Of a stretch of DNA of 37,425 nucleotides, positions 810 through 32,396 are shown piece by piece. The stretch's first letter is position 1. Each line of letters begins with the position of its first letter. The stretch covers positions 7,765-45,189 of the forward strand of contig CAYSXQ010000005.1 of NCBI GenBank assembly GCA_964435085.1. Reading direction: 5' to 3'. A program made the translations under genes and the position numbers. The notes under the pieces were generated by a model that was not told where the DNA came from, searched no databases, and saw only the letters and a list, made by a program, of their open reading frames with translations. Source of the stretch: an uncultured Gammaproteobacteria bacterium. Its GTDB lineage: Bacteria > Patescibacteriota > Patescibacteriia > Patescibacteriales > Patescibacteriaceae.

Positions 810-2021
810 ATGCCTCTATTTAAATACAAAGTTATTAATCGTGATTTTGACAAAGAGTCTGGTACTATTGAGGCAGCCAGCGACAAGCAAGTTGAGAGTA
901 TTTTGTCTAACAAGGGCTACCAGATCATTAGCATTAGTCAAAGTTCTTCTAGCGATGGCCTCGGTAGCTTCTTTAGAGGTCTGGTCGGGCGAGTCACAAT
1001 TAAGCAGCTAGTGGTTTTCATGCGCCAGTTTTCAGTTCTGATTAGCGCTAGTGTGCCACTATCGCAATCATTGCATATTCTATCTGAACAAGTTGAGCAA
1101 CCAGCCTTACGCGCTGTTATTATGGAGATTTCCAACAATGTCGATGCTGGTGAACGTTTGTCTGAAGCTATGTCTAAGCACCGCAACGTCTTTAGTGAAT
1201 TCCACATCAGCGTTGTTCGTTCTGGTGAAACTTCTGGTAAATTGGACGAGTCTCTGATCTACTTAGCTGACGAAGAAGAAAAAAACTACGAAATGGTGCG
1301 TAAGCTCAAGGGAGCTATGACTTATCCAGTCATCATTCTTATTACTATGGCTGGAGTTGGTGTGGCTATGATGATCTTTGTAGTGCCAAAACTCGTTACT
1401 ATTTTTAATGAAGTCGGTGGTGAATTGCCGATTATGACTAGGATGTTGATTGGTATTTCTGATCTAGTGCTCAACTATTGGTGGGCGTTACTGGCTGCTC
1501 TGCTGGGCCTAGTTCTCTTTATTAAATTTCTAACTAATAAGCCCTTTGGCAAACGCTATATCGACCTCGCTCTCTTCCGTATTCCTATTTTTGGTAATAT
1601 TATCAAGAAAATGGCTATGGTTCGTTTTTGTCGCACTATGAGTACTTTGCTAGTTGGCGGTGTGACCATCTCGAATAGTCTAAAGATCTCTAAGGGTATC
1701 GTCGGCAATTCTGTCTTCCAGGATCTAGTCACTGAGACCATCGCTGAAGTTGAAGAAGGTAATTCTGTCTCCACCGCCTTTCTTCGTTCCAAAGAAATTC
1801 CTGTTATGATGCCAAAGATGATGATGATCGGTGAAAAGACCGGTAAGCTTGACTTCGTCTTGGTTAAAATCGCCGACTTCTATGCTAAAGAATTAGATGC
1901 TATTCTTGATAACTTAATGGTTATTCTCGAGCCAGTCATCATGGTCTTCATGGGTATCGCCGTGCTCTTTATGGCAATGGCGATTATTATGCCGATGTAT
2001 AATTTGACTAGCCAGTTCTAG
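810..2021 (+). CDS. pilC: Type IV pilus assembly platform protein PilC (GspF/T2SS-F family)
   Basis: 403 aa. The N-terminus MPLFKYKVINRDFDKESGTIEAAS...ILSNKGYQIISI is typical of PilC. There are two GspF-like repeats with the usual three TM segments, and the C-terminus ends ...MPMYNLTSQF. Confidence 0.9.
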   Translation: MPLFKYKVINRDFDKESGTIEAASDKQVESILSNKGYQIISISQSSSSDGLGSFFRGLVGRVTIKQLVVFMRQFSVLISASVPLSQSLHILSEQVEQPALRAVIMEISNNVDAGERLSEAMSKHRNVFSEFHISVVRSGETSGKLDESLIYLADEEEKNYEMVRKLKGAMTYPVIILITMAGVGVAMMIFVVPKLVTIFNEVGGELPIMTRMLIGISDLVLNYWWALLAALLGLVLFIKFLTNKPFGKRYIDLALFRIPIFGNIIKKMAMVRFCRTMSTLLVGGVTISNSLKISKGIVGNSVFQDLVTETIAEVEEGNSVSTAFLRSKEIPVMMPKMMMIGEKTGKLDFVLVKIADFYAKELDAILDNLMVILEPVIMVFMGIAVLFMAMAIIMPMYNLTSQF

Positions 2022-2022
2022 A

Positions 2023-2168
2023 AAGTCTGAAAGTTCAAAGTCGTAAGTCGTAAGTCTCAAAGATTCAAATGATAAAAAATAAAAGCGTCTCAGATTTGAG
2101 ACGCTTTTATTTTACTAAGTCTATGTTTACACAGTACTTTAGACTTTCGACTTTGGACTTTCAGACTT
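2023..2168. repeat. Nested palindrome: a 28-bp imperfect inverted repeat (arms 2023-2057 and 2141-2168) enclosing the pilC terminator
   Basis: The left arm is aagtctgaaagttcaaagtcgtaagtc. The reverse complement of the right arm is aagtctgaaagtccaaagtcgaaagtct, giving 2 mismatches over 28 nt. The left arm carries an extra tandem gtaagtc unit. Confidence 0.7.
2084..2113 (+). terminator. Intrinsic terminator after pilC
   Basis: A perfect 9-bp stem, agcgtctca (2084-2092) with tgagacgct (2097-2105), has a gatt loop and is followed by tttatttt. Confidence 0.85.
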
Positions 2169-2188
2169 AACCGTTTGTATCTTTTTTT

Positions 2189-2208
2189 AAAAAATGTTAT
2201 TATGAATC
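2189..2208 (+). promoter_or_regulatory. Extended -10 promoter box upstream of the pilin gene (AAAAAATGTTATTATGAATC)
   Basis: TG at 2195-2196 and TATTAT at 2198-2203. It shares its box with the pilC promoter region. A strong SD, gggggg-tg, lies at 2285-2292, 6-7 nt before the ATG. Confidence 0.45.
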
Positions 2209-2297: not shown

Positions 2298-2741
2298 ATG
2301 AATAAAATGAAGAAAGGTTTCACTCTTATCGAACTCTTAGTGGTTATTGTTATTATTGGTATTCTTGCTACCTTGGCGACTGTCGCCTTAGGCTCTGCTC
2401 GTACCAAGGCTCGCGACGCCCGTCGTTTGTCTGACGTTCGTCAGATGCAGACTGCTTTAGAACTCTACTTCAACGACCAAGGTGGATATCCTGCCACAGC
2501 TACTGTAGCTCCTGGCTTGTCTATTTCCACCGCTGGCGGTACTTACATGGCTAAGATTCCAGGTAACCCAGCTCCTTACGGTGAAGGCGGTTGTCCTAGT
2601 GCTGCTGCTAACTCTGCTTACATCTACACTCAGGATAACGGTGGCTTGTCCTACACTATCTTGTACTGCTTAGGCGGTGCAACTGGTTCAATTTCCGCTG
2701 GTACTAACAGGGCAACTCCTGCTGGTATTACTGGTAGTTAA
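2298..2741 (+). CDS. Type IV (major) pilin with a class III prepilin signal
   Basis: 147 aa. MNKMKKG|[17 protein letters not shown] is a canonical prepilin cleavage/N-methylation motif with Glu at +5. Cys99 and Cys124 could form a C-terminal disulfide loop. The tail is Ser/Thr/Gly-rich and ends in Ser147. Confidence 0.9.
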
Positions 2742-2760
2742 TCACCATCGATCTAAAAAT

Positions 2761-2790
2761 ACTCAGCCTCGGCTGGGTATTTTTTATTTT
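2761..2790 (+). terminator. Intrinsic terminator after the pilin gene
   Basis: actcagcc pairs with ggctgggt and is followed by attttttatttt. Confidence 0.7.
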
Positions 2791-2815: not shown

Positions 2816-5116
2816 ATGATAGTCAATTCTACTCGCCTTGTGTCAATTTGCGACCGTGTTATTAATTGGTCAATCTACACTAGCTTAGCTCTAGTCCCAA
2901 TTATCTTTGCTTTTTGGCAAGAGAATTTTAATATTTTTGAGTTAAACAAACTGCTTGTTTTTAAAAGCGCTTTAGTCTTAGCCTGGCTAGCTCTGCTTAT
3001 CAAAATTACTATCACTAAGCAGTTGAAACTTAGTTTTGACTCTAAGATCCTGGTGGTCCTAGTAGTTTTGTTTATCTACATCATCGCTAATACTTTTCTT
3101 GCCCTTGACCCAGAGCAAAGCTTCTTTGGTATTTATATGCGTCAGCAGGGGGTACTTAGTCTTATTTATTATTGGCTCTACTTCCTGCTCCTGCTCTTTC
3201 ACCTGCGGCCAGACCAATCCTTGCGACCTTATCTACTTGCTATTGCTGTCGGTCTGTTACCGGTGCTTAGTTATGCCTTTGCTCAGAAGCTAGGCTTTGA
3301 TCCTTTGCGCTGGACGGAGCCAGGGACTGGTCGCACTTTTGCTAATCTCGGTCAACCTAATTTCCTAGCCTACTACCTCGACCTCACTATCTTTCTCTTG
3401 CTGGCCTCCTGGTCCTGGCTGAGTAAGACTTGGCATAAGCTGTTTTTACTCTTCATTACCGCTCTGCAACTAGTCGTTCTCAGCTTCACTACTAGTCGCG
3501 GCGGTTTAATCGGTCTAATCGCTGGCGCCCTAGTCTTACTAGCTGCTAAGCTGTGGCGCTCGGGCCACAAAAAAACCCTATTCATCTCTCTTAGTTCTGT
3601 CATCGCTCTTGTTATCGCTTCGCATTTCTTTGTCCATACTCTAGTGGCCAGGAACATTATTACTAATCCTGTCTTGATCCACTACGCCTCATCATTTAGC
3701 AGTCCTAGTGGCTCTAGTCAGGTTAGGCTTTTCTATTGGCGCTCAGCTTGGCAGGATTTTGAGGCTAGTTCTTGGTCGAGGCGACTGTTGGGCTATGGCA
3801 AAGACGGCCAGCGCTCAGTCTTTGTTCGTTACTATCAGCCAACTTGGGGCTTACACGAGAAGCTTAATTCCTATCCTGATCGCGCTCACAATCTCATTAT
3901 TGATATTTATTTAGAATTTGGCTTGATCGGCCTTGCTCTCTTTGCCTGGCTTAGTCTCTTAGTTGCCAGTCGCTCACTTAAATTCTGGCACACTTCAAGC
4001 ACTCCTATCGCCAAATTAATCCCATATCTACTAGCCGCTCTTGTTGCCTATTTTGCCAGCAATCTCTTTGGCTTCCCTCTGACAACCCATTATCTTTATT
4101 ATTATTTCATCCTTGCTCTACTCTGGATTATCGCTACCTCTGCTTCCGAGCGGATTATTAAATTGCCCTTCTCTTCACTCTTTTGCTGGCTTACTATTGC
4201 TGGTCTTACTGCTTTTCAGGCCTTCTTCTTGTGGCAGTTTACCTACAAATATTTCATTGCTGATACTTATTTCATGAAGGCTAAAGTTGCTGAAGCTCGC
4301 CTTGATTGTGCCGGCGTCATTACTAATCTAAATCAAACTATAGCTTGGCAGCCGCTGGATCTGTACTATCAAGAAAAATTTATCTTCATGTCTAATAACT
4401 GTCTGCCTCTCATTGATCAGGCTAGTCGCAAACAAGTGCTCAGGGCCTTATTGGAGCAATTATCGAAGCTGCGAGAGCGACCCTATGACTACGATCTAAC
4501 TCTCAACATCGCTCGCTCCTATTCGCTCTTTGCTTACTACTTTGATCCTAAGTACTATGCCGAGGCCGAGGGCTACTATCAACAATTAATCCAGCTTAAT
4601 CCCGACATCTTATCTGCCTACCAAGACTACGGCCGCATGAAAATCTGGGCAGGGGACTATGAAGCTGCTAAATCCATCTTTCGTCAGGGCATAGCTCGTA
4701 GCCCGATGCAGATCAGTAATTATCAAGACTTCGGCTACACCGATTTGATCAATGGTCAGACTTACTATCTCTGGCAGCTTATCGCCACCTGTGACTACAA
4801 TCAAAAGAACTTCAAAGAGGCCTTAGCTGTTTATCTAGACATCGAGTCTAAGCGTTTAGTTAGTGTTGAGCTTTATAAAAACATCGCCGATTCCTACTAC
4901 CAACTTAATAATTATCCGCAAACAGAGGTTTATTTAAAAAAGAATCTTGTTCTGGTGCCATCTGATATTAACATTAATTTAAATTTGGCTACTTTCTATA
5001 TGGAGCGCAATAATATTAAGGAGGCTAGGCGCTTCGCTCAGGCGGCTCTAGTAATCGATCCTAATAATGAAGATGTCCTTAAATTGATCGCTAAATTAAA
5101 AGACTTACTAAAATAA
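2816..5116 (+). CDS. Wzy_C-family membrane protein (O-antigen ligase / protein O-oligosaccharyltransferase family) with C-terminal TPR repeats
   Basis: 766 aa. The first ~480 aa contain many hydrophobic segments. Wzy_C-type motifs are FTTSRGGLIGLIAG and ...YPDRAHNLIIDIYLEFGLIGL. The last ~290 aa are TPR-like (AEAEGYYQQLIQLNPD..., YKNIADSYYQLNNYPQTEVYLKKNL..., EARRFAQAALVIDPNN). Confidence 0.8.
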   Translation: MIVNSTRLVSICDRVINWSIYTSLALVPIIFAFWQENFNIFELNKLLVFKSALVLAWLALLIKITITKQLKLSFDSKILVVLVVLFIYIIANTFLALDPEQSFFGIYMRQQGVLSLIYYWLYFLLLLFHLRPDQSLRPYLLAIAVGLLPVLSYAFAQKLGFDPLRWTEPGTGRTFANLGQPNFLAYYLDLTIFLLLASWSWLSKTWHKLFLLFITALQLVVLSFTTSRGGLIGLIAGALVLLAAKLWRSGHKKTLFISLSSVIALVIASHFFVHTLVARNIITNPVLIHYASSFSSPSGSSQVRLFYWRSAWQDFEASSWSRRLLGYGKDGQRSVFVRYYQPTWGLHEKLNSYPDRAHNLIIDIYLEFGLIGLALFAWLSLLVASRSLKFWHTSSTPIAKLIPYLLAALVAYFASNLFGFPLTTHYLYYYFILALLWIIATSASERIIKLPFSSLFCWLTIAGLTAFQAFFLWQFTYKYFIADTYFMKAKVAEARLDCAGVITNLNQTIAWQPLDLYYQEKFIFMSNNCLPLIDQASRKQVLRALLEQLSKLRERPYDYDLTLNIARSYSLFAYYFDPKYYAEAEGYYQQLIQLNPDILSAYQDYGRMKIWAGDYEAAKSIFRQGIARSPMQISNYQDFGYTDLINGQTYYLWQLIATCDYNQKNFKEALAVYLDIESKRLVSVELYKNIADSYYQLNNYPQTEVYLKKNLVLVPSDININLNLATFYMERNNIKEARRFAQAALVIDPNNEDVLKLIAKLKDLLK

Positions 5117-5118
5117 AA

Positions 5119-5138
5119 AGCCGTAATAAATTACGGCT
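5119..5138 (-). terminator. Hairpin terminator between convergent genes; the T-tract lies on the minus strand
   Basis: agccgtaa (5119-5126) pairs with ttacggct (5131-5138). The a-run upstream on the plus strand gives ttttatttt after the stem on the minus strand, so it serves the Nudix gene. There is no T-tract on the plus strand. Confidence 0.65.
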
Positions 5139-5156
5139 AGTAAAAATATCCAAGTC

Positions 5157-5639
5157 TTAGCTAGAGCTAAGCTTTAAAATATTATAGTCTTCAGCAAATT
5201 TTTGATGAATCGGATGCATTTCTTCTGGTGCTTTTTCAAAAAAACCAAATTCTGAAGCTTCATGATTGAGTTTGATTATGTTTATCAAATCATCAGGGAT
5301 ATTCAATTGCAGCGCTATACTAACGCTGTGTTTATAGCTACCGTCTGCTAATATTCCGTCCTCAAGAAATTCCATAGCTCCAAGTACTTTACAGGAGATT
5401 TCTGTTGGGCTAATACCTAGCTCGTTCTCGAGTATACGATTTATTGCAAGCTTAAAACTTTCACCCTTTCTTATGCCTCCACCAGGGAAGTGCCATAATT
5501 TATTATATGGCTCAATGGCTCGTCTTGTTAAAAGAACTTTGCCTCCGCTGTCTATAATCACACCATCGACGCAGACTCTAGCAGCGTGTTCTTGGATCAT
5601 GTTATAAATATCATTTGGCACGGTTTCACCTATTTTCAT
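5157..5639 (-). CDS. Nudix hydrolase, possibly a GDP-sugar (GDP-mannose mannosyl hydrolase-like) hydrolase
   Basis: 160 aa with the Nudix box PGGGIRKGESFKLAINRILENELG. Size and box layout resemble Gmm/WcaH-type enzymes found in glycan loci. A GGAG SD lies 8 nt before the ATG. Confidence 0.7.
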   Translation of the reverse strand: MKIGETVPNDIYNMIQEHAARVCVDGVIIDSGGKVLLTRRAIEPYNKLWHFPGGGIRKGESFKLAINRILENELGISPTEISCKVLGAMEFLEDGILADGSYKHSVSIALQLNIPDDLINIIKLNHEASEFGFFEKAPEEMHPIHQKFAEDYNILKLSSS

Positions 5640-5682
5640 GGCTGATTCTCCAACCTACTTAGTAAAAGACAATTGTAAAAAT

Positions 5683-5711
5683 ATTATATAATCAATTAAT
5701 GTTTTTGTCAA
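5683..5711 (-). promoter_or_regulatory. Consensus sigma70 promoter for the Nudix gene (TTGACA-17-TATAAT)
   Basis: On the minus strand, TTGACA is the reverse complement of 5706-5711. A 17-nt spacer follows, then TATAAT (reverse complement of 5683-5688), about 44 nt upstream of the ATG at 5639. Confidence 0.65.
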
Positions 5712-5732
5712 GGTATACTTAATGGCTATAAC
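5705..5732 (+). promoter_or_regulatory. Candidate plus-strand promoter for the glycan operon (TTGTCA-16-TATAAC)
   Basis: ttgtca at 5705-5710 overlaps the minus-strand -35 through the palindrome ttgtcaa/ttgacaa. tataac lies at 5727-5732. The leader to ATG 5908 would be about 170 nt. Confidence 0.3.
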
Positions 5733-5907
5733 GAATAGTCTTCATAATAGAGTCTGTTTTTTAATAGCTAATTTAGTAAGTACTTGTTTATATCAAAACT
5801 AAAAAATGGCAAAAGGTCAAGTTGCCTTTTTGCTATAAAAAACCTATTATTATCTATGTATTACAGTATAAAAATTCATTCAGATTTCTAAAATTAATTA
5901 TTTTTTT

Positions 5908-6870
5908 ATGAAGCAAGTGTTGGTTTGCGGCGCTGGTGGTTTTATCGGCAGTCATTTGGTTAAAAAGCTTAAAAATGAAGGTGCTTGGGTAAGGGGAGTC
6001 GATCTGAAGTATCCGGAATTTAGTCTCACTCATGCCGATGAATTTATCATTGGTGATTTACGTTCTCAACAGATTGTTGCCTCGATCTTGGATCGTCCTT
6101 TTGATGAAGTTTATCAATTAGCGGCTGATATGGGTGGGGCCGGTTACATTTTTACCGGTGAGCACGACGCCGATGTGATGTACAATAGCGCCATGATCAA
6201 TTTAAACATTGCTCATTATGGTCGTCTTGCTGGCATTCACAAAGTTTTTTATTCCTCTTCGGCTTGTATCTATCCTACTCACAATCAGCTTGATCCTAGT
6301 AATCCTAGGTGCAGTGAAGCAAGCGCTTATCCAGCAGCACCTGACAGTGAGTATGGCTGGGAGAAGCTTTTTAGTGAGCGTTTATATTTATCCTATGCTC
6401 GCAATTACGGTCTTAATATTCGCGTCGCTCGCTTTCATAATATTTTTGGACCTGAGGGTGCTTGGCGCGGTGGCAAAGACAAGGCTCCAGCTGCCATCTG
6501 TCGCAAAGTTGCAGAGGCTGTCGATGGCGCTGAGATTGAAATCTGGGGTGATGGTAAGCAGACCCGCAGCTTTTTGTATATTGATGAATGTCTAGAAGGT
6601 GTCTCAAGGCTCATGGCCTCTGACTTCATTGGCCCAGTCAATATTGGCTCTGAGGAAATGGTTAGTATCAATCAACTAGCAGAAGCTGTTATGACAATAG
6701 CTGCTAAAAATTTATCTATTAAGCATGTCTCTGGTCCCTTGGGTGTTCGAGGTCGCAATAGTGACAATAATCTCTTGCGTGAAAAATTGGCCTGGGCTCC
6801 TACTACTACTCTCAGACATGGCTTGGAAAAAACTTTCCATTGGATTAATGAGCAAGTAAAGAATCAATAA
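5908..6870 (+). CDS. GDP-mannose 3,5-epimerase (GME-type extended SDR)
   Basis: 320 aa with GAGGFIGSHL. Long blocks match plant GME as I recall it: LAADMGGAGYI, SSSACIYP, ARFHNIFGPEGAWRGGKDKAPAAICRK, GDGKQTRSFLYIDECLEGVSRL, PVNIGSEEMVSINQLAE, GPLGVRGRNSDNNLLREKLAWAP. Confidence 0.85.
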   Translation: MKQVLVCGAGGFIGSHLVKKLKNEGAWVRGVDLKYPEFSLTHADEFIIGDLRSQQIVASILDRPFDEVYQLAADMGGAGYIFTGEHDADVMYNSAMINLNIAHYGRLAGIHKVFYSSSACIYPTHNQLDPSNPRCSEASAYPAAPDSEYGWEKLFSERLYLSYARNYGLNIRVARFHNIFGPEGAWRGGKDKAPAAICRKVAEAVDGAEIEIWGDGKQTRSFLYIDECLEGVSRLMASDFIGPVNIGSEEMVSINQLAEAVMTIAAKNLSIKHVSGPLGVRGRNSDNNLLREKLAWAPTTTLRHGLEKTFHWINEQVKNQ

Positions 6871-6872
6871 TC

Positions 6873-7697
6873 ATGAGCGAAAACATCAAGGTAATTCAAC
6901 CAAATATCAAATTTCATTGGAGTGATTTTCGTGAACTGCTTGCTTATCGTGAGTTGCTCTACTTTTTAACTTGGCGCGATCTCAAAGTTCGTTATAAGCA
7001 AACCATTATCGGTGTTGCTTGGGTTATTTTTCAGCCTTTTATTACTATGGTAGTTTTCACTATCTTCTTTGGTAATTTTGCCAAAATGCCCACCGACGGA
7101 GCTCCTTATCCCATCTTTGTCTTTATTGGCCTGCTCTTTTGGCAATTTTTTAGCTCAGCGCTTAGTGACATATCCAACTGTCTAGTGGCTAATCAAGGCA
7201 TTATTAGCAAGGTCTATTTCCCGAGGATTATTTTGCCTCTCTCTATGATCCTGACTAGGTTAATCGATTTTTTGGTGGCTTCGGCTATGTTGATTGTGCT
7301 CATGATCTATTACAGTTTTATGCCAAGTTTAATTGGTTTGCTTGTATTTCCAATTCTAATTTTGGTTAGTGCTATTGCGGCTCTGGGTCTAGGTTTATTT
7401 TTCGCTAGCTTAAACGTTAAGTATCGAGATGTTAGGTATGTCTTGCCTTTCTTTATCCAGTTAATGATGTTCGTCACTCCAGTTGTTTATTCTTCCAGTA
7501 TTCTAGGTAGCTATGGCTGGATCTTAGCTCTTAATCCCATGGCTGGAGTTATTAAAACTGCTCGCAGCGAATTATTACAAAGTTACGCCACCAATTGGCT
7601 GCAGTTTACTTTATCAATGTGTGTTTGCGCTCTAGTCTTGATAATAGGCTGGCTGTATTTCCGCCATGAAGAACGCGCTAGCGTTGATACTTTTTAA
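6873..7697 (+). CDS. wzm: ABC-2 type polysaccharide exporter permease (Wzm/TagG-like)
   Basis: 274 aa. The N-terminus ...LLAYRELLYFLTWRDLKVRYKQTIIGVAWVIFQP is the ABC-2 signature, followed by 6 hydrophobic segments. Confidence 0.85.
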   Translation: MSENIKVIQPNIKFHWSDFRELLAYRELLYFLTWRDLKVRYKQTIIGVAWVIFQPFITMVVFTIFFGNFAKMPTDGAPYPIFVFIGLLFWQFFSSALSDISNCLVANQGIISKVYFPRIILPLSMILTRLIDFLVASAMLIVLMIYYSFMPSLIGLLVFPILILVSAIAALGLGLFFASLNVKYRDVRYVLPFFIQLMMFVTPVVYSSSILGSYGWILALNPMAGVIKTARSELLQSYATNWLQFTLSMCVCALVLIIGWLYFRHEERASVDTF

Positions 7698-7698
7698 T

Positions 7699-8934: not shown

Positions 8935-8938
8935 ATTT

Positions 8939-12516: not shown

Positions 12517-12517
12517 T

Positions 12518-14280: not shown

Positions 14281-14329
14281 CCTCTTTAATAATCATTAAA
14301 ATTTACAAAAATTAGCATATTTAAAAAAT

Positions 14330-16559: not shown

Positions 16560-16568
16560 AAATCTTAT

Positions 16569-17387: not shown

Positions 17388-17399
17388 CAATTTAAAACT

Positions 17400-19396: not shown

Positions 19397-19420
19397 GCAA
19401 AGTTAATTTAAGTAACTGTG

Positions 19421-24094: not shown

Positions 24095-24139
24095 TTATTG
24101 GTCATTTAAACAGCTACTTTTTATTTAAGTAATTATTCT

Positions 24140-24595: not shown

Positions 24596-24599
24596 TTGT

Positions 24600-26300: not shown

Positions 26301-26310
26301 TCAATAAAAT

Positions 26311-27249
26311 GTGAGTAAAAACCCTGTTGATTATCATTTGAGTAAGCCTGTTTTGTTGTTAGCTTTTAATGATGTTAAGACGACCGGGCGAGTTCTAGCT
26401 TCTATTCGAGAGGCTAGACCTCTTAGGCTTTATTTCGCTACCGACGGCCCTCGTCTTGGTCGAGATGATGATATTGCTAAAATTAATCAGGTTAGAGCTC
26501 TGGAGTCAATGATCGATTGGCCTTGTCAATTGTTTACTTTACACCAAGCTGTTAACAAAGGCTGTCCTGAAGCTTTGCAGCTTGCTTTGGATTGGTTTTT
26601 TGCTAACGAAGAAAATGGCATTATTTTAGAACATGACATGTTGCCAGATTTAAGTTTTTATAGATTCTGTCAGCTGATGCTAGATAAGTATCAAGATGAT
26701 GAAGAAATCATGCATATTGCTGGCAATAGTTTTCGTGATAAGCTCATTGGTGATGGCGATTATTATTTTTCCCGTATTCCGATAATTTGGGGCTGGGCAA
26801 CTTGGCGGCGAGCTTGGAAAAAATATGATAAAACTATGAGCACTTGGCCGAATTTTAGTCACAGTCAAAATTATCAAAATATTTTACCTTGGTGGTGGTT
26901 GCGTCAAAAATTTACCTACGTCCTAGACAAAGTAGCTTGTGGCAGAACTAATTCCTGGGATTATCAATGGACTTATTCCTTATTAAAAAATAACGGCCTA
27001 GCTATCTGCCCTAATGCTAATCTGATCACTAACATTGGCTTTGGTCCGGACGCTTTAAATAGCACTAACCTTAATGATCCTTTGGCTAACGTCAAACTTG
27101 AGAACATCTCTTTTCCGCTCAAAGACCCTAGTCTCAAGCAACCTGATAAAACTGCTGACCATCAATTTATTACCAAGATTTATAAATTTAATCCGCTCAA
27201 AGTTATCCTTCGCAATTTAGGCATTGATTTACACAAGCTATTATTGTAA
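26311..27249 (+). CDS. HlpA-like nucleotide-diphospho-sugar transferase-fold protein (putative glycosyltransferase)
   Basis: 312 aa with a GTG start. PVLLLAFNDVKTTGRVLASIREARPLRLYFATDGPR...IDWPC...GCPEALQLALDWFFANEENGIILEHDMLPDLSFYRFC matches the family pattern as I recall it. Confidence 0.5.
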   Translation: MSKNPVDYHLSKPVLLLAFNDVKTTGRVLASIREARPLRLYFATDGPRLGRDDDIAKINQVRALESMIDWPCQLFTLHQAVNKGCPEALQLALDWFFANEENGIILEHDMLPDLSFYRFCQLMLDKYQDDEEIMHIAGNSFRDKLIGDGDYYFSRIPIIWGWATWRRAWKKYDKTMSTWPNFSHSQNYQNILPWWWLRQKFTYVLDKVACGRTNSWDYQWTYSLLKNNGLAICPNANLITNIGFGPDALNSTNLNDPLANVKLENISFPLKDPSLKQPDKTADHQFITKIYKFNPLKVILRNLGIDLHKLLL

Positions 27250-27250
27250 T

Positions 27251-28408
27251 ATGAATATTTTGATTACTGTCTATGATGACTGGCGGGCGAGTGGTGGCAC
27301 CGCTGTTTCTACTGAGCTGATAGCTAAAAATTTAGCAGCTCTGGGGCATCGAGTATTCATAGCCTCGACTGGCGACTACCCGCAGATTAAAACTTTTGTT
27401 TTCTCTAAAATTAGAAGGCTGCCTATCTTTGCTTTGCGCGACTGGTATTTAAAAAAGTTTTTTTTACGGCTCATTAAACAGGAAAAGATCGACCTGATCT
27501 ATGCTTCTGACTGCCGCTTTACAGCTGTGGCGGCCATATTAGCTGGAACCAAAGCTGGTATTAAGACAGTTGTTCACTACAGGGACTACTGGTTTAGATG
27601 TCTGCGTGGCGATATGTTGCATGGTCATAATACTTGCGATGGTCATGATTTAGATTTTTGTTATTCTTTGCAAGTCAAAAAAATATTACTTTGGGAGCTC
27701 TATAAATTAGTTTATTTTAAAAAAAGACAAATCATACTTAATTCTGCAGACTTGAATTTATCGGTTAGTGCTGCTATGCGTAAGAGGCTGCACCAAGCTG
27801 GTCTAAATAATCGAACTGAGATTATCTATGATCTGTTTGACCTTGAGCGGTCCAACAATGATCGCGTTAGTAGTGATCGGCTTAAAATAATCTTCGTCGG
27901 CAGGTTAGTTGATCACAGAGGTCTAAAAACCATGATGAGCATTGCCAAAGGTCTGAAGGACAGGGGGGTGCTGTTTAGCTTAGTTATAGTCGGTGAGGGT
28001 GAGCTTATGAATTATTGTAAAAACTTTATCAAAAACCATGAGCTTGTTAATGTTGGTCTAGTTGGTCTTTTAAGCCATGAGACAGTCTCGGATCAGTATC
28101 GGTCTGCTGATACCTTTCTGTTTCCGGCTAGATTAGAGGAGCCATTGGGTCGAGTCGTGGTAGAGGCTATGTCTGCTGGCTTACCGGTCATTGCCAGTAG
28201 AGTCGGCGGCATACTTGAGTTGGTAACCGATGGTGTGGAAGGTTTTTTGGTCGATAAGAATGATATTTCTGGGTTTATTGATAAATTATTATTATTGCAA
28301 GACAAATCTTTGCTGAGCAAAATGTCCACGGCCGCTATAAAAAAGGCTGATTCTTTTGATCAGCTGCTTGTGGCTAAGCGCCTCAATGATTTAATAACTG
28401 GCCTGTGA
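27251..28408 (+). CDS. GT4-family (group 1) glycosyltransferase
   Basis: FPARLEEPLGRVVVEAMSAGLPVIASRVGGILELVTDGVEGFLV contains the E-x7-E region. ATG 27251 lies 1 nt after the upstream stop. The tracked ORF starts at 27224. Confidence 0.85.
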   Translation: MNILITVYDDWRASGGTAVSTELIAKNLAALGHRVFIASTGDYPQIKTFVFSKIRRLPIFALRDWYLKKFFLRLIKQEKIDLIYASDCRFTAVAAILAGTKAGIKTVVHYRDYWFRCLRGDMLHGHNTCDGHDLDFCYSLQVKKILLWELYKLVYFKKRQIILNSADLNLSVSAAMRKRLHQAGLNNRTEIIYDLFDLERSNNDRVSSDRLKIIFVGRLVDHRGLKTMMSIAKGLKDRGVLFSLVIVGEGELMNYCKNFIKNHELVNVGLVGLLSHETVSDQYRSADTFLFPARLEEPLGRVVVEAMSAGLPVIASRVGGILELVTDGVEGFLVDKNDISGFIDKLLLLQDKSLLSKMSTAAIKKADSFDQLLVAKRLNDLITGL

Positions 28409-29475
28409 GTCAAATGAATTATTTTTATAGAAATCCAATGACTAAAGGTCTTTTTTACTGTCTTGATAAATTATTATTTTGGCAGCTTTCTAGAAAGCTG
28501 CCAACTGTTAAGAGGCTGTTATTGGTTAACTTGGGCGGCATCGGCGATGTTGTGTTGATGGAGCCAATGATTAGAAGGTTAGTATGTTTGTGGCCATTAG
28601 CCGAAATCGATATCTTGGTTGATAGTAGGACTCAAGAGCTTTTGCGTGGAAATAAGTATATCCATCGCATCGATATCTTTGCTTTGCCTTGGCTTTCGCA
28701 TAGCCAGCCAGGCTGGCTCGCTAGTCTGGCTTCATTTTGCCGTCAAGTCAATCTATTAAAAAACCGTAATTATGACCTAGCTTTTGATTTGAAGGGTGAT
28801 CCGGCTGTTATCCTCTTGCTCACTTTGGCTAAAATTAAATATCGCATCGGCTTTGCTAATGGGGGCTTGTCGGCGTTCTTGCATGAAGCTTATGATTTCT
28901 TCAGTTACCACCTGCCGCGCGCTAATTTAAATTATCTGCTACTTAGTAACTTTTTGCCCGAGTGGCAGCTAGAGCAGGCGAGTCCTATTATTAGTTTGAC
29001 TGATGCTGAAAAACTTTGGGCTATTAAAGAAAAAACTAAGCTGTGTCAATCTAATAAGAAAACTATTACTATTCATCTAGGCGCAGGTCGTTCAGATAAA
29101 GTTTGGCCAAGTAGCTCCTGGCGCCAATTGCTCGCCGATTTATCAGTTTACAATCTACTGGTCATTGGTAGTGAATCTGATAATGATTTACTGACAGCGC
29201 TGGATAGCGATCAATTAATTAACTGCTTGGGCTATGAATTACGACAAACGGCAGCGCTGATTAGTCAGTCTGATCTATTTATTGGCGGTGATAGCGGTCC
29301 TGGCCATTTAGCCGCTGCTCTCGGCACGCCACTTATCTCAATTTTTTCAACTGTTAATGATTATATTGTGTGGTCGGCTAGTGGAGCTCATTTATTTACT
29401 TTTGGCTCTGACGAGCCTGTTGATTTTCGGCAGATTGCTAACGCAGCTTTACGTATTTTAGGAGCTAAGATATAA
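28405..29475 (+). CDS. GT9-family glycosyltransferase (heptosyltransferase family)
   Basis: 356 aa with LLVNLGGIGDVVLMEPMIRRL, ITIHLGAGRSDKVWP and LFIGGDSGPGHLAAALGTPLISIF. The GTG start overlaps the upstream stop (GTGA), and an alternative ATG lies at 28414. Confidence 0.75.
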   Translation: MSQMNYFYRNPMTKGLFYCLDKLLFWQLSRKLPTVKRLLLVNLGGIGDVVLMEPMIRRLVCLWPLAEIDILVDSRTQELLRGNKYIHRIDIFALPWLSHSQPGWLASLASFCRQVNLLKNRNYDLAFDLKGDPAVILLLTLAKIKYRIGFANGGLSAFLHEAYDFFSYHLPRANLNYLLLSNFLPEWQLEQASPIISLTDAEKLWAIKEKTKLCQSNKKTITIHLGAGRSDKVWPSSSWRQLLADLSVYNLLVIGSESDNDLLTALDSDQLINCLGYELRQTAALISQSDLFIGGDSGPGHLAAALGTPLISIFSTVNDYIVWSASGAHLFTFGSDEPVDFRQIANAALRILGAKI

Positions 29476-29482: not shown

Positions 29483-30796
29483 ATGGCTATTACTAGGTTT
29501 TTACTCAAAAAAATGCTCACTCCCAAAGCTTTGCTTAGCTGTGCTACTGTTGTAAGTCTCGCTCTTATTTTGGCTAGGCTACTGATCGGTGGTGGTTTGC
29601 CTGGTGGTGATTCTATTACTTACTACTCTTCTTTGCGAGCCATTGTGCTTGAGCATAGTTTAAATTTAGAGAATAGTTATAATTACTTTCATAATGATCA
29701 TTCTAAATTTACTGGCTTATCTAAGTTTCCCTACCTCACGAAGCCTTATGAGCCTACTGGACGTTATTTGATGCACTATCCCATCGGTGTCGTCATATCT
29801 TGGACGCCTTTTTTCTTACTGGGTCAATTAGCCGCTCAAATTTACAGTTTTTGCTCCGGTGATTATTGGTCACTTACTGGCTTTTCCATGATTCAGTACT
29901 TTTTCACAGCAAGCTCTGCTGTCTTCTATGCCATGTTGGGTTTGTTTTTTATCTATCACTACCTAATTAGATATGAGCAAGTGGCTAAGAGCACTGCCCT
30001 ACTAGCAGTTCTTTCTGTTGGTCTTGGTACTTCTTTGACTTACTATATTTACTTTATTCCTACTTATTCTCATGTTGTCTCATTTTTTTGGTCTAGCTCT
30101 TTGTTGATTTACTTTCTAAAATGCTACCGCAGTAAGCTCTGGACTAAGCGCTCTTTTTTACTGCTAGGCTTTCTAACGGCTATGACGGCTCTAACTAGAT
30201 ATCAAGATATTGGTATTTTGCTTGTGCCATTGACTATCTTGCTGTTTGATTGGCTTAGGGAGAAAAAAATGCCAATTGCCTTGTCTCCGCTTAATCTTAG
30301 TCTGGCTATCTTAACTTGTTTTACAGCCTTTATTCCTCAGTTATTAATCAATAAATATTTAGCTGGCTCATATTGGGAGAGTGGTTATGTCGGTGAAACT
30401 TTTGCCTACTTAACAAATCCTCAGCTTGGCTATGTTCTATTTAGTCCACTTAAAGGTTTGTTTATAATTACTCCCCTTATTTTATTTGCAATTATTGGCC
30501 TGTGCACTAGGTTAAAAAACAGTTTATATTTAGGACTCTTTATTTTTTTTCTGGCCGAGCTCTATTTGACATCTGCTTGGTACGCTTACCATCAAGGTGA
30601 GAGTTATGGTATTCGTATGCTGATTGTTTGTTCTATAGCTTTTATTTTTGGACTCATTCCTGTTTTGAATAAGCTTGCTGCTTCTAAAAAATATTGGCCA
30701 TATATATTTAGCGTCATCTTTATTGCCATTAACTGGCTCTTAATGGTTCTTTACGCTTTACGTGTTTTTGGTTCTGATTATAGTGCTTACAATTAA
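29483..30796 (+). CDS. Polytopic membrane protein, likely a GT-C fold glycosyltransferase (ArnT/PMT, GT39/GT83-like)
   Basis: 437 aa with at least 10 hydrophobic segments. An acidic motif lies in the first loop (GGDSITYY). The gene sits next to a polyprenyl-phosphate glycosyltransferase gene. Confidence 0.5.
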   Translation: MAITRFLLKKMLTPKALLSCATVVSLALILARLLIGGGLPGGDSITYYSSLRAIVLEHSLNLENSYNYFHNDHSKFTGLSKFPYLTKPYEPTGRYLMHYPIGVVISWTPFFLLGQLAAQIYSFCSGDYWSLTGFSMIQYFFTASSAVFYAMLGLFFIYHYLIRYEQVAKSTALLAVLSVGLGTSLTYYIYFIPTYSHVVSFFWSSSLLIYFLKCYRSKLWTKRSFLLLGFLTAMTALTRYQDIGILLVPLTILLFDWLREKKMPIALSPLNLSLAILTCFTAFIPQLLINKYLAGSYWESGYVGETFAYLTNPQLGYVLFSPLKGLFIITPLILFAIIGLCTRLKNSLYLGLFIFFLAELYLTSAWYAYHQGESYGIRMLIVCSIAFIFGLIPVLNKLAASKKYWPYIFSVIFIAINWLLMVLYALRVFGSDYSAYN

Positions 30797-30821
30797 TTAT
30801 ACCTAGCCAATTATCTAATCT

Positions 30822-31520
30822 ATGAAAAAAATCACTATCATCATACCTGTGTACAACGAAGTTAAGACCATCTTGCCTATTTTAGATTTGGTTCGAGCTG
30901 TTAATTTAGATTTAGAAAAAGAAATTATCGTTATTGATGATAAGTCAACTGACGGCACTAGAGAAATTTTAGCTAATCTTGCTTTTCCTGGCCTACGAGT
31001 AATTTTTCAGCCTGTCAATAAAGGCAAGGGTTCTGCTGTACGTGCTGGTTTTGCTGAGTCAACTGGTGATATTATTGTTATCCAAGACGCTGATTTAGAA
31101 TACCGTCCCAATGATTATCCTAAGTTACTCGCACCTATCTTGGCCGGCCATGCTGACGTAGTCTATGGCTCAAGAGTTTTGGGTGGCGAAGCAAAGCGTG
31201 TAATATTCTTTTGGTATGCTTTAGGTAATAGATTTTTAACACTACTCTCCAATATGCTGACCAATCTCAATTTGACCGATATGGAGACTTGCTATAAAGT
31301 TATGACTAGGGAGGTGCTTGATAGTTTGCGTACTAAGCTTACAACTAATCGCTTTGGCATCGAGCCAGAACTTACTGCTCACTTTGCTCGTGGCGGCTGG
31401 CGTATCTATGAAGTTGGTATTAGTTACGATGGTCGTACCTACGCCGAGGGTAAAAAAATCAATTGGCGTGACGGTGTGGCAGCGCTTTGGTATATTATTA
31501 AATTCAATTTATTAAAATAA
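30822..31520 (+). CDS. GT2 polyprenyl-phosphate glycosyltransferase (DPM1/Ppm1/ArnC-like)
   Basis: 232 aa with ITIIIPVYNEVKTILPIL, IIVIDDKSTDGT, NKGKGSAVRAGF and VIQDADLEYRPNDYPKLL. Confidence 0.8.
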   Translation: MKKITIIIPVYNEVKTILPILDLVRAVNLDLEKEIIVIDDKSTDGTREILANLAFPGLRVIFQPVNKGKGSAVRAGFAESTGDIIVIQDADLEYRPNDYPKLLAPILAGHADVVYGSRVLGGEAKRVIFFWYALGNRFLTLLSNMLTNLNLTDMETCYKVMTREVLDSLRTKLTTNRFGIEPELTAHFARGGWRIYEVGISYDGRTYAEGKKINWRDGVAALWYIIKFNLLK

Positions 31521-31523
31521 CCT

Positions 31524-32396
31524 ATGTTCGATCTCTTCTTGGCTTTCTCTTTTATCTTCGGCACCATGATCGGTAGTTTCCTTAACTGCCTAGTCTGGCG
31601 TCTCTACCGGGACGAAAGCCTCTGGACTAGATCGCATTGTCCTCGCTGCGACAAACAAATTGCTTGGTACGACAATATTCCTCTAGTAAGCTTCTTGTCT
31701 CTCGGCGCACGTTGCCGTCATTGCAAAGAGAAAATTAGTTTTGAATATCCACTGGCTGAACTCGCTCTCGGCTTCCTTTTTGCCTTTGTCTTTTGGTATA
31801 ACTTTAATGGTCTATCTGACCTCTTTTTAATCAATGAGCTTACTAGTTTTAATCTCGGCACCTTGTTACTACTGCGTGACTGGATTATCGTTGCTTTCCT
31901 CTCCGCTATCTTCCTCATGGACTATAAATGGTATGTTGTAGCTGATGAAATAAGTATTCCGGGAATTATCATTATCTTTTTAATTAATCTTGGGATTGGT
32001 TTCGCTTGGCCAGATATAGCCTTAGGGTTCGTCTGGTGGAGACTACTGCTAGCTACTCTGGTCGGCGGCGCATTTTTCTCCTTGCAATACTTCCTTTCTG
32101 GCGGTCGCTGGGTCGGAGCCGGGGATATTCGTATCGGCGCTCTGATGGGTGCCGCTCTCGGTTGGCCGGGCATTCTTGTTGGTCTAGCTTTGTCTTATGG
32201 GATTGGAGCCGTCGCTTCTATTTATTTGATCGTCGTTAAGAAGAAACAAAAATTTGATTTTCGTCATCTCTGGCAAGAGTCCGAACCGACCGAGGAGGCA
32301 ATTATTCCTTTTGGGCCATTTCTGGCTATTGGTTGTATTATCGCTCTTTTTTACAGTGAAGTAATTATTAATTGGTATCAAAACCTAATGTTTTAA
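31524..32396 (+). CDS. pilD: Prepilin peptidase / N-methyltransferase (A24 family)
   Basis: 290 aa. GSFLNCLVWRL and the CPRC...CRHC zinc-knuckle region (DiS_P_DiS) are present, as are Asp motifs in FLMDYKW and GAGDIRIGA, and the C-terminal IPFGPFLAIG. Confidence 0.9.
   Translation: MFDLFLAFSFIFGTMIGSFLNCLVWRLYRDESLWTRSHCPRCDKQIAWYDNIPLVSFLSLGARCRHCKEKISFEYPLAELALGFLFAFVFWYNFNGLSDLFLINELTSFNLGTLLLLRDWIIVAFLSAIFLMDYKWYVVADEISIPGIIIIFLINLGIGFAWPDIALGFVWWRLLLATLVGGAFFSLQYFLSGGRWVGAGDIRIGALMGAALGWPGILVGLALSYGIGAVASIYLIVVKKKQKFDFRHLWQESEPTEEAIIPFGPFLAIGCIIALFYSEVIINWYQNLMF

Follow-up and report, generated by a model that had tools for sequence, protein, structure and literature searches.

Glycan genes inserted between an O-antigen ligase-like gene and the prepilin peptidase gene of a Patescibacterial type IV pilus locus

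A 37,425 nucleotide (nt) stretch of DNA (assembly GCA_964435085.1, contig CAYSXQ010000005.1, positions 7,765 to 45,189; hereafter the window) carries type IV pilus genes on both sides of a long array of glycan genes. The pilus genes pilC and a prepilin gene, followed by the gene of a membrane enzyme here called WzyC_TPR, are found at the left edge, and the prepilin peptidase gene pilD lies at the right end, next to pyrG. Judged from gene order in related genomes, an ancestral pilin–WzyC_TPR–pilD cluster was split when the glycan locus was inserted, and the position of this locus is probably functional rather than accidental. The insertion is much firmer than the biochemical part of the interpretation, which is held with modest confidence: a glycan exported by the Wzm/Wzt transporter of the array would be O-linked to the pilin by WzyC_TPR. 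The nesting of the locus among the pilus genes suggests that the pili used for attachment to host bacteria are glycosylated.

Gene order in relatives was followed in two independent scans, in which neighbouring genes were identified mainly by tblastn with the window proteins as queries at a coverage of at least 50%, so that divergent pilins and glycosyltransferases are under-counted. The pilD-centred scan used 20 aligned PilD sequences and one genome per species, and gave 80 loci (L016–L095), 63 of them with usable upstream DNA; the WzyC-centred scan took metagenome contigs with a WzyC_TPR alignment and gave a further 80 (L096–L175). Some metagenome loci duplicate genome loci (e.g., L100 is L013), and part of the gaps between the two genes were annotated. 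WzyC_TPR ends within 400 nt upstream of pilD in 22 of the 63 pilD-centred loci, and lies 0.4–3 kb upstream in nine and 3–10 kb upstream in another nine. A pilin gene abuts pilD, without WzyC, in seven, and no WzyC is present in the available upstream DNA of 16, four of which (L016, L017, L018 and L020) show the order GT2(232 aa)–pilD–pyrG (GT2, glycosyltransferase family 2; aa, amino acids). Among the 80 WzyC-centred loci, pilD follows on the same strand within 400 nt in 28, at 0.4–3 kb in 23 and at 3–10 kb in eight; wzm comes next and pilD lies beyond the fetched 10 kb in seven, eight have no pilD, and six are too short to tell. Across both scans there are 140 informative loci, and the WzyC_TPR and pilD genes are on the same strand and adjacent in 50 of them and 0.4–10 kb apart in 49.

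The usual complete order in Patescibacteria is pilM–...–pilB–pilC–pilin (one or two)–WzyC_TPR–pilD, uninterrupted. One locus (L095) represents an empty site with the window's own flanks, i.e., pilM..pilC–pilin–WzyC_TPR–pilD–pyrG, with a gap of 59 nt between WzyC_TPR and pilD. It is because contiguous WzyC_TPR–pilD pairs are common in relatives, and because of this empty site, that the glycan locus is read as an insertion. The first-pass annotation had offered an insertion into an ancestral pilC–pilin–pilD cluster as one of two possibilities; the insertion itself is borne out by L095 and the uninterrupted relatives, but the Wzy_C gene belongs to the ancestral cluster, and the site is between it and pilD. 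The linkage is also not a by-product of pilD being routinely a neighbour of pyrG and separate from pilC and the pilin gene, since pyrG is directly 3′ of pilD in 10 of the 63 informative species-level loci. Even within this pilD–pyrG subgroup, pilC, the pilin gene and WzyC are still linked wherever upstream DNA is visible (L028, L067, L080, L084, L086 and L095). The WzyC–pilD distance in the subgroup is 2.7 kb in L067, L084 and L086, 4.1 kb in L080 and 6.2 kb in L028, and intermediates of 4–7 kb that also end in pilD–pyrG are L098, L110, L028 and L080.

The WzyC_TPR–pilD pair occurs in a second conserved context, with the order ClpP (opposite strand), then SecD–SecF–WzyC_TPR–pilD–FtsA–FtsZ, and no pilin gene nearby (L118, L119, L126, L139, L148 and L153, at about 6.4–15.8 kb in each locus). 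A prepilin open reading frame (ORF) stands just upstream of WzyC_TPR in 23 of 70 WzyC-centred loci, with a median of 107 nt between them, and many of the others belong to the second context. Since the prepilin gene is found in only 23 of these loci, and since the second context is free of pilin genes, the WzyC_TPR–pilD pair is the most conserved unit.

Pfam scans of 23 genes lying between WzyC_TPR and pilD in seven loci, from the two unrelated genomic contexts, found all 23 to be glycan-type or without a Pfam family (three such). The gaps of L031 and L042 hold a methyltransferase and a GT2, and that of L026 a radical SAM enzyme and a GT4. L084 has a methyltransferase, a 214 aa protein without a Pfam family and a PMT_2-like GT-C; L080 a GT2, a 210 aa protein without a Pfam family, a GT-C and a GT2::methyltransferase fusion; and L028 a GT2, a methyltransferase, a GT9, a 220 aa protein without a Pfam family, a GT-C and a 234 aa GT2. 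In L134, which belongs to the SecDF context, a GT2 and a GT8 gene lie between WzyC_TPR and pilD (12305–14072). Gap sizes range from none, through two to six genes (0.4–7 kb), to the 26–35 kb cluster of the window's clade; on one contig (Ga0172379_10000931), WzyC_TPR and pilD are about 34 kb apart on one strand.

The borders of the large loci recur. The left junction WzyC_TPR–(one to three genes)–Wzm–...–Wzt is seen in L012/L096, L013/L100, L097, L099, L102 and L103, and the right end GT2(232 aa)–pilD–pyrG in L004/L016, L006, L009, L017, L018 and L020. A GT-C gene is directly 5′ of the 232 aa GT2 gene in L004/L016, L006 and L009 and about 0.6 kb 5′ of it in L020, while none was detected upstream of this GT2 in L017 and L018. 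L102 also has about 6.5 kb between its pilin gene and WzyC_TPR (3080–10001), and thus has an insertion on the pilin side of the enzyme gene. A close relative, L009, has 89% DNA identity to the window over a stretch that begins precisely with the 232 aa GT2 gene (30821) and extends through pilD, pyrG and the ABC-F gene (PyrG protein, 98%), and no DNA similarity upstream of 30821, where it carries other genes (HAD, NTP transferase, GDPD and others). The more distant L010 (PilD 57% identical) shares 70–74% DNA identity with window positions 5904–13598. O-antigen, capsule and slg-type loci are marked by just such conserved flanks, a mosaic interior and low GC content (PMC2943079).

If the locus had landed by chance at a permissive intergenic site, with no functional tie to the pilus, this would fit the apparent promoter region that the array has for itself, the hairpins and the opposite-strand gene that separate it from the pilus genes, and a GC content that differs from the flanks. 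Such neutral insertion is very improbable, given that the same site is filled in many lineages and in two contexts, invariably with glycan-type genes or genes lacking a Pfam family among those scanned, that the left border gene itself encodes a glycan-transfer enzyme, and that genes of mobile elements, tRNA genes and direct repeats at the flanks are all absent. A mobile island was rejected, as the window contains no tRNA, Rfam match, integrase or transposase domain, or direct repeats flanking the array. The other possibility raised in the first-pass annotation, a functional pilus-glycosylation island, gains indirect support from the recurrence of glycan-type gap genes in two contexts and from the O-oligosaccharyltransferase-like enzyme at the border.

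By protein similarity the window is a piece of a Patescibacterial (candidate phyla radiation, CPR) chromosome related to Candidatus Falkowbacteria. The closest PilD homologues are metagenome proteins with 90, 70 and 57% identity, and the next tier, at 40–49%, comes from Patescibacteria, Falkowbacteria or Parcubacteria. The best match in the scan of one genome per species was Candidatus Falkowbacteria UBA917 (PilD 70% and PyrG 86% identical). Patescibacteria are monoderms (PMC11665869), and for this reason no lipid A-core (lipopolysaccharide, LPS) acceptor is expected. Pilus loci of the typical Patescibacterial kind also come from many metagenome-assembled genomes labelled 'uncultured Gammaproteobacteria bacterium' (binchicken/SRP co-assemblies), among them L018, L019, L023, L025, L027, L032 and about 25 others; this organism label seems to be a mistake or a placeholder.

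WzyC_TPR (2816..5116, plus strand) is a 766 aa membrane enzyme of the WaaL/PglL (Wzy_C) superfamily and a candidate O-oligosaccharyltransferase (O-OTase). The Pfam family Wzy_C is matched at residues 214–377 with 55.5 bits (cut-off 31.7), along with TPR families, the TPR domain covering approximately residues 498–765. An AlphaFold2 (AF2) model of the full-length protein (pLDDT 86.5, pTM 0.81) has 13 long helices, predicted to be transmembrane (TM), followed by a TPR superhelix. Matches to the TPR part swamped the fold search with this model, the best of them being O-GlcNAc transferase, and residues 1–492 were therefore modelled separately (pTM 0.84). The best PDB match of this N-terminal model is WaaL (7TPG_B; E 1.5e-5, TM-scores 0.56/0.66), followed by RodA and FtsW with E above 0.03, so that WaaL is the only strong match; the model shows a polytopic fold of the WaaL type, in which TM9 is followed by a large external loop. 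In sequence-profile searches of the PDB, full-length WzyC_TPR returned TPR proteins only and the membrane-domain profile nothing. Both termini of WaaL are cytoplasmic; the extra 13th helix of WzyC_TPR and the basic residues in its even-numbered loops would place the TPR domain outside the membrane, by the catalytic loop. The family members are about 760–800 aa long, every named one is Patescibacterial, and they are found across Patescibacteria. Sources label them 'O-antigen ligase family protein' or 'oligosaccharide repeat unit polymerase'.

Three residues, R228 (with S227), R304 and H358 (in an R-A-H-N motif), are invariant or nearly so in 23–27 family members and are spaced by 76 and 54 residues. 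The residues essential for activity are R224, R298 and H349 in PglL (spacing 74/51) and R215, R288 and H338 in Escherichia coli WaaL (spacing 73/50) (PMC3643930). R228, R304 and H358 are accordingly candidates for the catalytic residues of WzyC_TPR.

The candidate acceptor is encoded immediately upstream. The gene at 2298..2741 (plus strand; Pfam N_methyl, E 6e-10) specifies a major-pilin-type prepilin with the leader MNKMKKG/FTLIELLVV (cleavage G/FTLIE). WzyC_TPR starts 75 nt after its end (2741 to 2816) in the same orientation, the adjacency seen in pilin-linked O-OTases, and most pilD-centred loci have the two genes in this order as well. PilC, a prepilin with a G/F-x-x-x-E leader and an A24 prepilin peptidase together mark the window genes as part of a type IV pilus cluster. 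Pilins adjacent to WzyC_TPR (window 2670–2741; L012–L095 and L096–L175) share the C-terminus Y-C-L-G-G-x-T-G-G-x-x-A-G-x-H-x-A-[S/T/Y]-P-x-G-[I/L]. The A-[S/T/Y]-P tail motif (within H/N-x-A-[S/T/Y]-P-x-G) is present in 40 of 53 non-redundant WzyC_TPR-adjacent pilins versus 9 of 41 other pilins, with Tyr at the hydroxyl position in four. Its use as a discriminator of WzyC linkage was dropped, as it is enriched but not exclusive, and on the same grounds it is kept only as a candidate acceptor site. Many loci encode two pilins, and the paralogue 5′ of the WzyC-adjacent gene has a conserved but clearly different C-terminus, ...Y-R-Y-V-S-...-L-Q-V-I-R-G-W (L019 6479–6955, L027 6350–6829, L032 6511–6984, L036 6044–6541, and L044, L045, L047, L074 and L076); the window lacks it.

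WzyC_TPR could instead be a general O-glycosylation enzyme that acts, like Neisseria PglL or WsaB/WsfB, on many exported proteins (S-layer proteins, adhesins), the pilin being at most one substrate and the linkage to pilD reflecting a shared maturation of membrane-surface proteins. The occurrence of the WzyC_TPR–pilD pair in a pilin-free neighbourhood, flanked by secDF and ftsAZ, would be understandable on these terms, as would the combination of Wzm/Wzt with a Wzy_C/TPR protein, which is the architecture of monoderm S-layer clusters (PMC2943079), and the TPR domain, a generic protein-binding module that in structure most resembles that of O-GlcNAc transferase. This proposal is nevertheless judged unlikely, though worth keeping in view, as it does not account for the prepilin gene that precedes WzyC_TPR at a median of 107 nt in 23 of 70 loci and in the window's lineage, or for a tail motif that is rarer in pilins not adjacent to WzyC_TPR. 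Nor was any S-layer-type gene found among the 35 window genes or in any examined locus.

The glycan to be transferred would be the product of the array. Domain assignments were made for all 35 window genes (Pfam, NCBIfam). The array comprises 27 plus-strand ORFs from 5908 to 34071, with a largest gap of 75 nt (24064 to 24140) and 11 overlapping junctions. A simple terminator scan within 5908–34071 gave weak intragenic hairpins only, their number not above that in shuffled sequence, and the GC content of the array is 0.38 versus 0.42–0.48 for the flanks. These data agree with the first-pass annotation, which had counted 27 same-strand genes with gaps of at most 75 nt and many overlaps, had seen no convincing terminator before the one that follows pyrG (a good hairpin at 34077–34107), and had placed pilD as the last gene before the housekeeping gene pyrG. 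Its start positions for pilC (810), the pilin gene (2298), Wzy_C (2816) and pilD (31524) are likewise confirmed by the ORF map and domain scans. What it overlooked are the C-terminal TPR domain of the Wzy_C protein, the minus-strand NUDIX gene, the hairpins after pilC, the pilin gene and WzyC, the missing pilB and pilM, and the lower GC content of the array.

The first gene of the array encodes an NAD-dependent sugar epimerase/dehydratase (5908..6870; Pfam Epimerase, E 2e-41; 77% identical to its L010 counterpart). It is followed by Wzm, the ABC-2 permease of a glycan exporter (6873..7697; ABC2_membrane, E 3e-17), which is 65–76% identical in L010, L012, L013, L097 and L103 and directly 3′ of WzyC_TPR in several loci, and by Wzt, an ABC ATPase (7666..8934; ABC_tran, E 8e-22) with a C-terminal carbohydrate-binding domain (Wzt_C, 37.4 bits, cut-off 30.4). 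An ABC-2 permease and an ATPase bearing Wzt_C are features of ABC-transporter-dependent polysaccharide systems. Next come an FkbM-type methyltransferase (8939..9691; Methyltransf_21, E 2e-21), kept directly 3′ of wzt in L010 and L012, and a GT11 glycosyltransferase (9688..10596; Glyco_transf_11, E 7e-23). Pfam assignments for the interior, all on the plus strand, define a modified-sugar block at 10606..15439 (AsnB-like amidotransferase, GFO/IDH/MocA oxidoreductase, formyltransferase and DegT aminotransferase) and a central assembly block at 15426..24064 with four or five glycosyltransferases (Glyco_trans_1_2 twice, GT2 twice and GT11), three methyltransferase-like proteins including a DUF268 protein, and a Polysacc_synt_2 4,6-dehydratase. 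A cupin (FdtA/RmlC-like), a fused double short-chain dehydrogenase/reductase (epimerase plus RmlD-like), a 312 aa protein, a GT4 and a GT9 occupy 24140..29475; NCBIfam heptosyltransferase models match the GT9 well under their cut-offs. The 312 aa protein (26311–27249) is soluble and has no Pfam or NCBIfam match, is 39–48% conserved in the glycan loci of L004, L009, L018, L020 and L108, and probably represents an unrecognised family of glycan-modifying enzymes.

Near its right end the array encodes a polytopic membrane protein (29483..30796, plus strand) with at least nine hydrophobic segments, a putative GT-C related to PMT_2 by transitive homology. It has no Pfam match itself, and its profile found no match in the PDB. 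A search of 1.84 billion proteins gave 3460 homologues, and PMT_2 is matched by 21 of 38 aligned ones (best E 6e-10), with D43 invariant, so that the window protein is PMT_2-like only transitively. PMT_2-type proteins hold this position in L004, L009, L006, L028, L080 and L084. The gene is highly divergent among close relatives (window 29483–30796; L004 7986–9293, L009 7978–9291, L006 7802–9127), and in a phmmer comparison of ten GT-Cs of this position the window version was detectably similar only to that of L020, a divergence that amounts to allele-like replacement at a fixed position. A protein of about 210–220 aa is encoded directly 5′ of the GT-C in L084 (8037–8681), L080 (6763–7395), L028 (7295–7957), L004 (7360–7989) and L006 (5353–6012). 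It had no Pfam family in the three copies scanned (L084, L080 and L028), and the window has no counterpart, the GT9 gene preceding the GT-C there.

The GT-C is followed by the soluble 232 aa GT2 (30822..31520, plus strand; Glycos_transf_2, E 3e-35), which resembles polyprenyl-phosphate sugar synthases (AglJ/ArnC/PpgS/PgfS-like), the NCBIfam AglJ, PgfS, PpgS and ArnC models all being matched under their cut-offs. This GT2 adjoins pilD in L002–L009, L016–L018 and L020 (57–85% identical) and in L028 (54%). PilD, the prepilin peptidase/N-methyltransferase (31524..32396, plus strand), has the Pfam domains A24_N_bact (E 2e-30) and Peptidase_A24. PilD proteins of the window's clade are 289–292 aa long, about 25 residues above the 255–270 aa of most other Patescibacterial PilD, and that of the window has no NCBIfam match at E up to 0.01 despite both A24 domains. 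In total, the array encodes about ten glycosyltransferases (GT2, GT4, GT9, GT11 and Glyco_trans_1_2), four or five methyltransferase-like proteins, and, for sugar modification, epimerases/dehydratases, the oxidoreductase–aminotransferase–formyltransferase trio, the AsnB-like amidotransferase, the cupin and the fused double reductase.

Gene content of this kind, with Wzm, Wzt bearing Wzt_C, GT9, GT4, GT11 and methyltransferases, is indistinguishable from that of an ABC-transporter-dependent O-antigen cluster, and would also suit a cell-envelope polysaccharide. WzyC_TPR would then ligate or polymerise the exported chain onto peptidoglycan or a lipid anchor, where it would be the functional counterpart of an O-antigen or a secondary wall polymer, and the pilus neighbourhood would be conserved but functionally unrelated. 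The LPS ligase WaaL as the only strong fold match, the lack of a PglL-specific motif in the Pfam scan and the names given to the family in the sources point the same way. Ligation of wall polymers in monoderms is normally carried out by LCP enzymes, and no LCP ligase was found among the window genes by Pfam scan, nor was a flippase or polymerase of the Wzx/Wzy route. The known acceptor of WaaL is not expected in Patescibacteria, which are monoderms (PMC11665869). An envelope role also leaves unexplained the tie between WzyC and pilD in 99 of 140 informative loci, the tie to the pilin in the window's lineage and the conservation of a protein-binding TPR domain that is predicted to face outwards, and it is considered decidedly unlikely. 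An LPS O-antigen locus with WaaL as its ligase was rejected as the principal explanation because all close homologues are Patescibacterial, the phylum is monoderm (PMC11665869) and the GT9 matches to heptosyltransferase models are far under their cut-offs.

For O-linkage of the exported glycan to the pilin, the following sequence of events may be proposed. The short space between WzyC_TPR and pilD collects glycan genes by accretion. [quoted passage not shown] The chain would be modified or capped by methyltransferases, for which there are four or five candidate methyltransferase-like genes. Wzm/Wzt would export the chain, the C-terminal carbohydrate-binding domain of Wzt recognising the cap. 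Outside the membrane, WzyC_TPR would move the glycan onto a hydroxyl residue of the pilin whose gene directly precedes its own, with the TPR domain holding the protein substrate and the A-[S/T/Y]-P tail motif as candidate acceptor site. The synthase-like GT2 and the PMT_2-like GT-C may decorate the pilin or the glycan with single sugars on the outer side of the membrane.

A number of points weigh against this proposal or limit how far it can be taken. The assignment of R228, R304 and H358 as the WaaL/PglL catalytic residues comes from their spacing and loop position rather than from direct alignment, and the outward placement of the TPR domain is a prediction from helix count and charge distribution. 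The PglL-specific PglL_A motif (PF15864) was not matched in a Pfam scan with E up to 0.001. The C-terminal Ser/Thr acceptor rule of the pilin O-OTases TfpO and TfpM does not extend across the family: the window pilin itself ends in Ser, but none of the 53 non-redundant WzyC_TPR-adjacent pilins of related loci ends in Ser/Thr, their common last residues being Q, N, P and D. In 47 of the 70 WzyC-centred loci there is no prepilin gene within 2.5 kb upstream, and the acceptor might not be the major pilin, since the SecDF/FtsAZ context keeps pilD and not a pilin gene. The pilus genes do not share a single transcription unit with the array in the window, where hairpins follow pilC and the pilin gene and the NUDIX gene lies on the opposite strand. 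No initiating phosphoglycosyl transferase was found in the window (no Bac_transf or Glycos_transf_4 match in the Pfam scan), so the glycan pathway is incomplete as seen there. The loci were gathered by similarity to window proteins, and their counts are therefore not an unbiased census. In a neighbour-joining tree of PilD, the loci with large clusters group together as one clade within loci whose gaps are short or absent; the tree is built from this one gene, carries no support values and is indicative only. Glycosylation of the Patescibacterial pilin is itself something that we infer.

Several known systems share parts of this arrangement. In the slg clusters of monoderms (Geobacillus stearothermophilus WsaB, Paenibacillus alvei WsfB), Wzm/Wzt are combined with a Wzy_C O-OTase, which may have TPR repeats at its C-terminus (PMC2943079). 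The window resembles these in its monoderm host, the position of wzm and wzt upstream of central glycosyltransferase genes, an asparagine-synthase homologue, overlapping ORFs, a GC content below that of the genome and candidate chain methylation, which in slg clusters is proposed as a cap read by Wzt (PMC2943079); TPR repeats are found either at the C-terminus of the Wzy_C O-OTase, as in WsfB, or in a separate protein, as in WsaA. Thus Wzm/Wzt and a TPR-bearing Wzy_C protein occur together in a monoderm in both cases, but the window shows neither an S-layer gene nor a WbaP-type initiating transferase. It also differs in having a type IV pilin by the O-OTase gene instead of an S-layer protein, in the nesting of the cluster between the O-OTase gene and pilD, in the lack of an rmlABCD set, and in its Patescibacterial host.

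The second likeness is to pilin-specific and general O-OTases of diderms. TfpO and TfpM are shorter than the 766 aa WzyC_TPR and are not known to have a TPR domain. Wzy_C O-OTases are commonly encoded beside their pilin substrates, and a survey of 31 PglL homologues placed 21 of them next to a pilin gene (PMC3643930, PMC9829042). Accordingly, the coupling of type IV pilus and polysaccharide genes that the first-pass annotation regarded as unusual is so only as to the nesting of a whole glycan locus in a pilus operon, since a pilin gene beside a Wzy_C O-OTase gene was already known (PMC3643930, PMC9829042). TfpO (PilO; Pseudomonas aeruginosa 1244, Acinetobacter), TfpM (Moraxellaceae), PglS–ComP (Acinetobacter baylyi) and Neisseria PglL share with the window a Wzy_C gene directly 3′ of the pilin gene in the same orientation, a conserved Arg/Arg/His set, which in WzyC_TPR is a candidate equivalent by its spacing, and, under the mechanism proposed here, a lipid-linked glycan borrowed from a polysaccharide pathway. 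They differ in being diderm and in having the glycan genes elsewhere (O-antigen, capsule or pgl loci), and WzyC_TPR differs in being tied to pilD as well, in lacking a detected PglL_A motif and in the absence of pilins ending in Ser/Thr among the 53. TfpO and TfpM are described as being of about the same size, and both glycosylate a Ser/Thr at the C-terminus (PMC9829042, PMC3643930).

With regard to export, the window has the Wzm, the Wzt with Wzt_C, the candidate methyl caps, the GT4, GT9 and GT11 enzymes and the WaaL-fold ligase-like enzyme of the ABC-transporter-dependent O-antigen pathway. This pathway is represented by E. coli O8/O9a and Klebsiella O-antigens. It differs from the window in that no lipid A-core is expected in the latter, that WzyC_TPR has a 13th helix and a TPR domain, and that the locus lies in a pilus operon rather than among housekeeping genes alone. 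GT-C enzymes provide a further comparison. Ppm1/Pmt carry out O-mannosylation in Actinobacteria, and Streptococcus mutans has the Pgf system. TfpW is responsible for pilin arabinosylation in P. aeruginosa Pa5196 (bioRxiv 10.1101/2020.04.19.049825). The synthase-like GT2 and PMT_2-related GT-C of the window are alike to these systems, and the pair adjoins a pilus gene; unlike them, the window GT-C is only transitively PMT_2-like and its alleles differ strongly between close relatives. The acceptor of the GT2/GT-C pair may be the pilin or the glycan chain, the latter as in GtrABC O-antigen modification. In the pilA region of the diderm Geobacter sulfurreducens, the xap polysaccharide/ABC exporter genes are directly downstream of the pilin gene, which is mentioned as a lead only; we know of no Wzy_C plus TPR enzyme or pilD bracket at the xap locus. 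The window combines the layout of pilin-adjacent Wzy_C O-OTases with that of monoderm Wzm/Wzt S-layer clusters, and departs from the known systems in host phylum, the tie to pilD, a complete and variable glycan locus in a pilus operon, the lack of a C-terminal Ser/Thr rule and the lack of a PglL motif.

The left edge of the window differs from the arrangement in relatives. PilC (810..2021, plus strand), the T2SSF-family platform protein of the type IV pilus (Pfam T2SSF, E 9e-55, with matches to NCBIfam GspF and PilC models), is 87% identical to that of L012, in which pilB abuts pilC. No PilB, PilM or PilO was found in the window by tblastn with L012 and L013 queries; all three are upstream of pilC in relatives. 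Instead, an HU gene (363–668) and a hairpin (696–712) precede pilC, where in relatives pilB ends 2 nt before it (L012 2456–4234), and the DNA similarity to L012 begins exactly at the pilC start (window 809). The absence of pilB, pilM and pilO and the point at which L012 similarity begins indicate a rearrangement breakpoint directly 5′ of pilC. A 27 nt motif (TTTTTGGAAAAAATGTTATAGTTAATC) at 737–763, 47 nt 5′ of pilC, recurs at 2182–2208 and 2222–2248 upstream of the pilin gene with 81% and 74% identity; the pilus genes may share it as a promoter or operator.

Three strong terminator-like hairpins are found in this part. The first, with a 17-pair stem and a following T run, is located 3′ of pilC (2076..2113), and just past the pilC stop it is enclosed by a 33 nt inverted repeat (2023–2055 and 2136–2168; 88% complementary, AAGTC/GACTT-rich). 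A second one, with a 13-pair stem and then a T run, follows the pilin gene (2755..2784, plus strand). A third hairpin, with an 8-pair stem and a T run on the minus strand, lies between the convergent WzyC_TPR and NUDIX genes (5119..5138). The NUDIX hydrolase (5157..5639, minus strand; Pfam NUDIX, E 2e-13) is weakly similar to GDP-mannose mannosyl hydrolase (NCBIfam PRK15434, E 8e-11, under its cut-off), and gene lists of L010 and L012 have no NUDIX gene at the corresponding position. Since this minus-strand gene stands between the pilus genes and the array, the array needs its own promoter in the divergent intergenic region 5640..5907. By motif matches, this region presumably contains the promoters of both: a perfect TTGACA-17-TATAAT on the minus strand at 5711–5683 for NUDIX, and a 9/12 match on the plus strand at 5822–5850.

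At the right edge, pyrG (32407..34071, plus strand; CTP synthase, Pfam CTP_synth_N, E 5e-109) is both the last gene of the array and the housekeeping flank. The hairpin beyond it (34077..34107) has a 12-pair stem and is terminator-like, lying between the convergent pyrG and ABC-F genes. In L009 (PilD 90% identical), a 23S_rRNA_IVP-family gene (12614–12970) is present between pyrG and the ABC-F gene, where the window (34072–34261) is intergenic. Two minus-strand genes further on, at 36054–36722 (222 aa) and 36848–37288 (146 aa), have no Pfam or NCBIfam family, and their products are only 48% and 66% conserved in L009 versus 96–98% for the flanking housekeeping proteins, indicating that they are fast-evolving.

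Type IV pili are essential in cultivated Patescibacteria and mediate attachment to host bacteria (PMC11665869, PMC11623550), and a study of Saccharibacterial pili describes the glycosylation of CPR pilins as unexplored (PMC11623550). Full-text literature searches found no description of CPR pilus genes linked to O-antigen ligase or glycosylation genes. The synteny described here supplies a candidate enzyme (WzyC_TPR), a motif close to the C-terminus of the pilin as candidate acceptor (A-[S/T/Y]-P) and a variable site for glycan genes (WzyC_TPR to pilD), and bears on open questions of CPR cell-surface decoration, host specificity and what CPR phages recognise. As a tentative extension, and one that is possible rather than probable, the type IV pilus of many Patescibacteria, with which these episymbionts find their hosts and keep hold of them, may carry their main variable surface polysaccharide. 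WzyC_TPR, alongside PilD, would attach long, ABC-exported, methyl-capped glycans, and would represent a distinct fifth family of pilin O-OTases for polymer-length substrates; the WzyC–pilD locus would then resemble an O-antigen or capsule serotype locus and determine the range of hosts and the sensitivity to phages. The making of glycoconjugates could also profit from an O-OTase with a TPR domain for which ABC-exported polymers are natural substrates. If the polymer were instead attached to the cell wall, the main variable surface-glycan locus of a large, little-known group of bacteria would still have been located.

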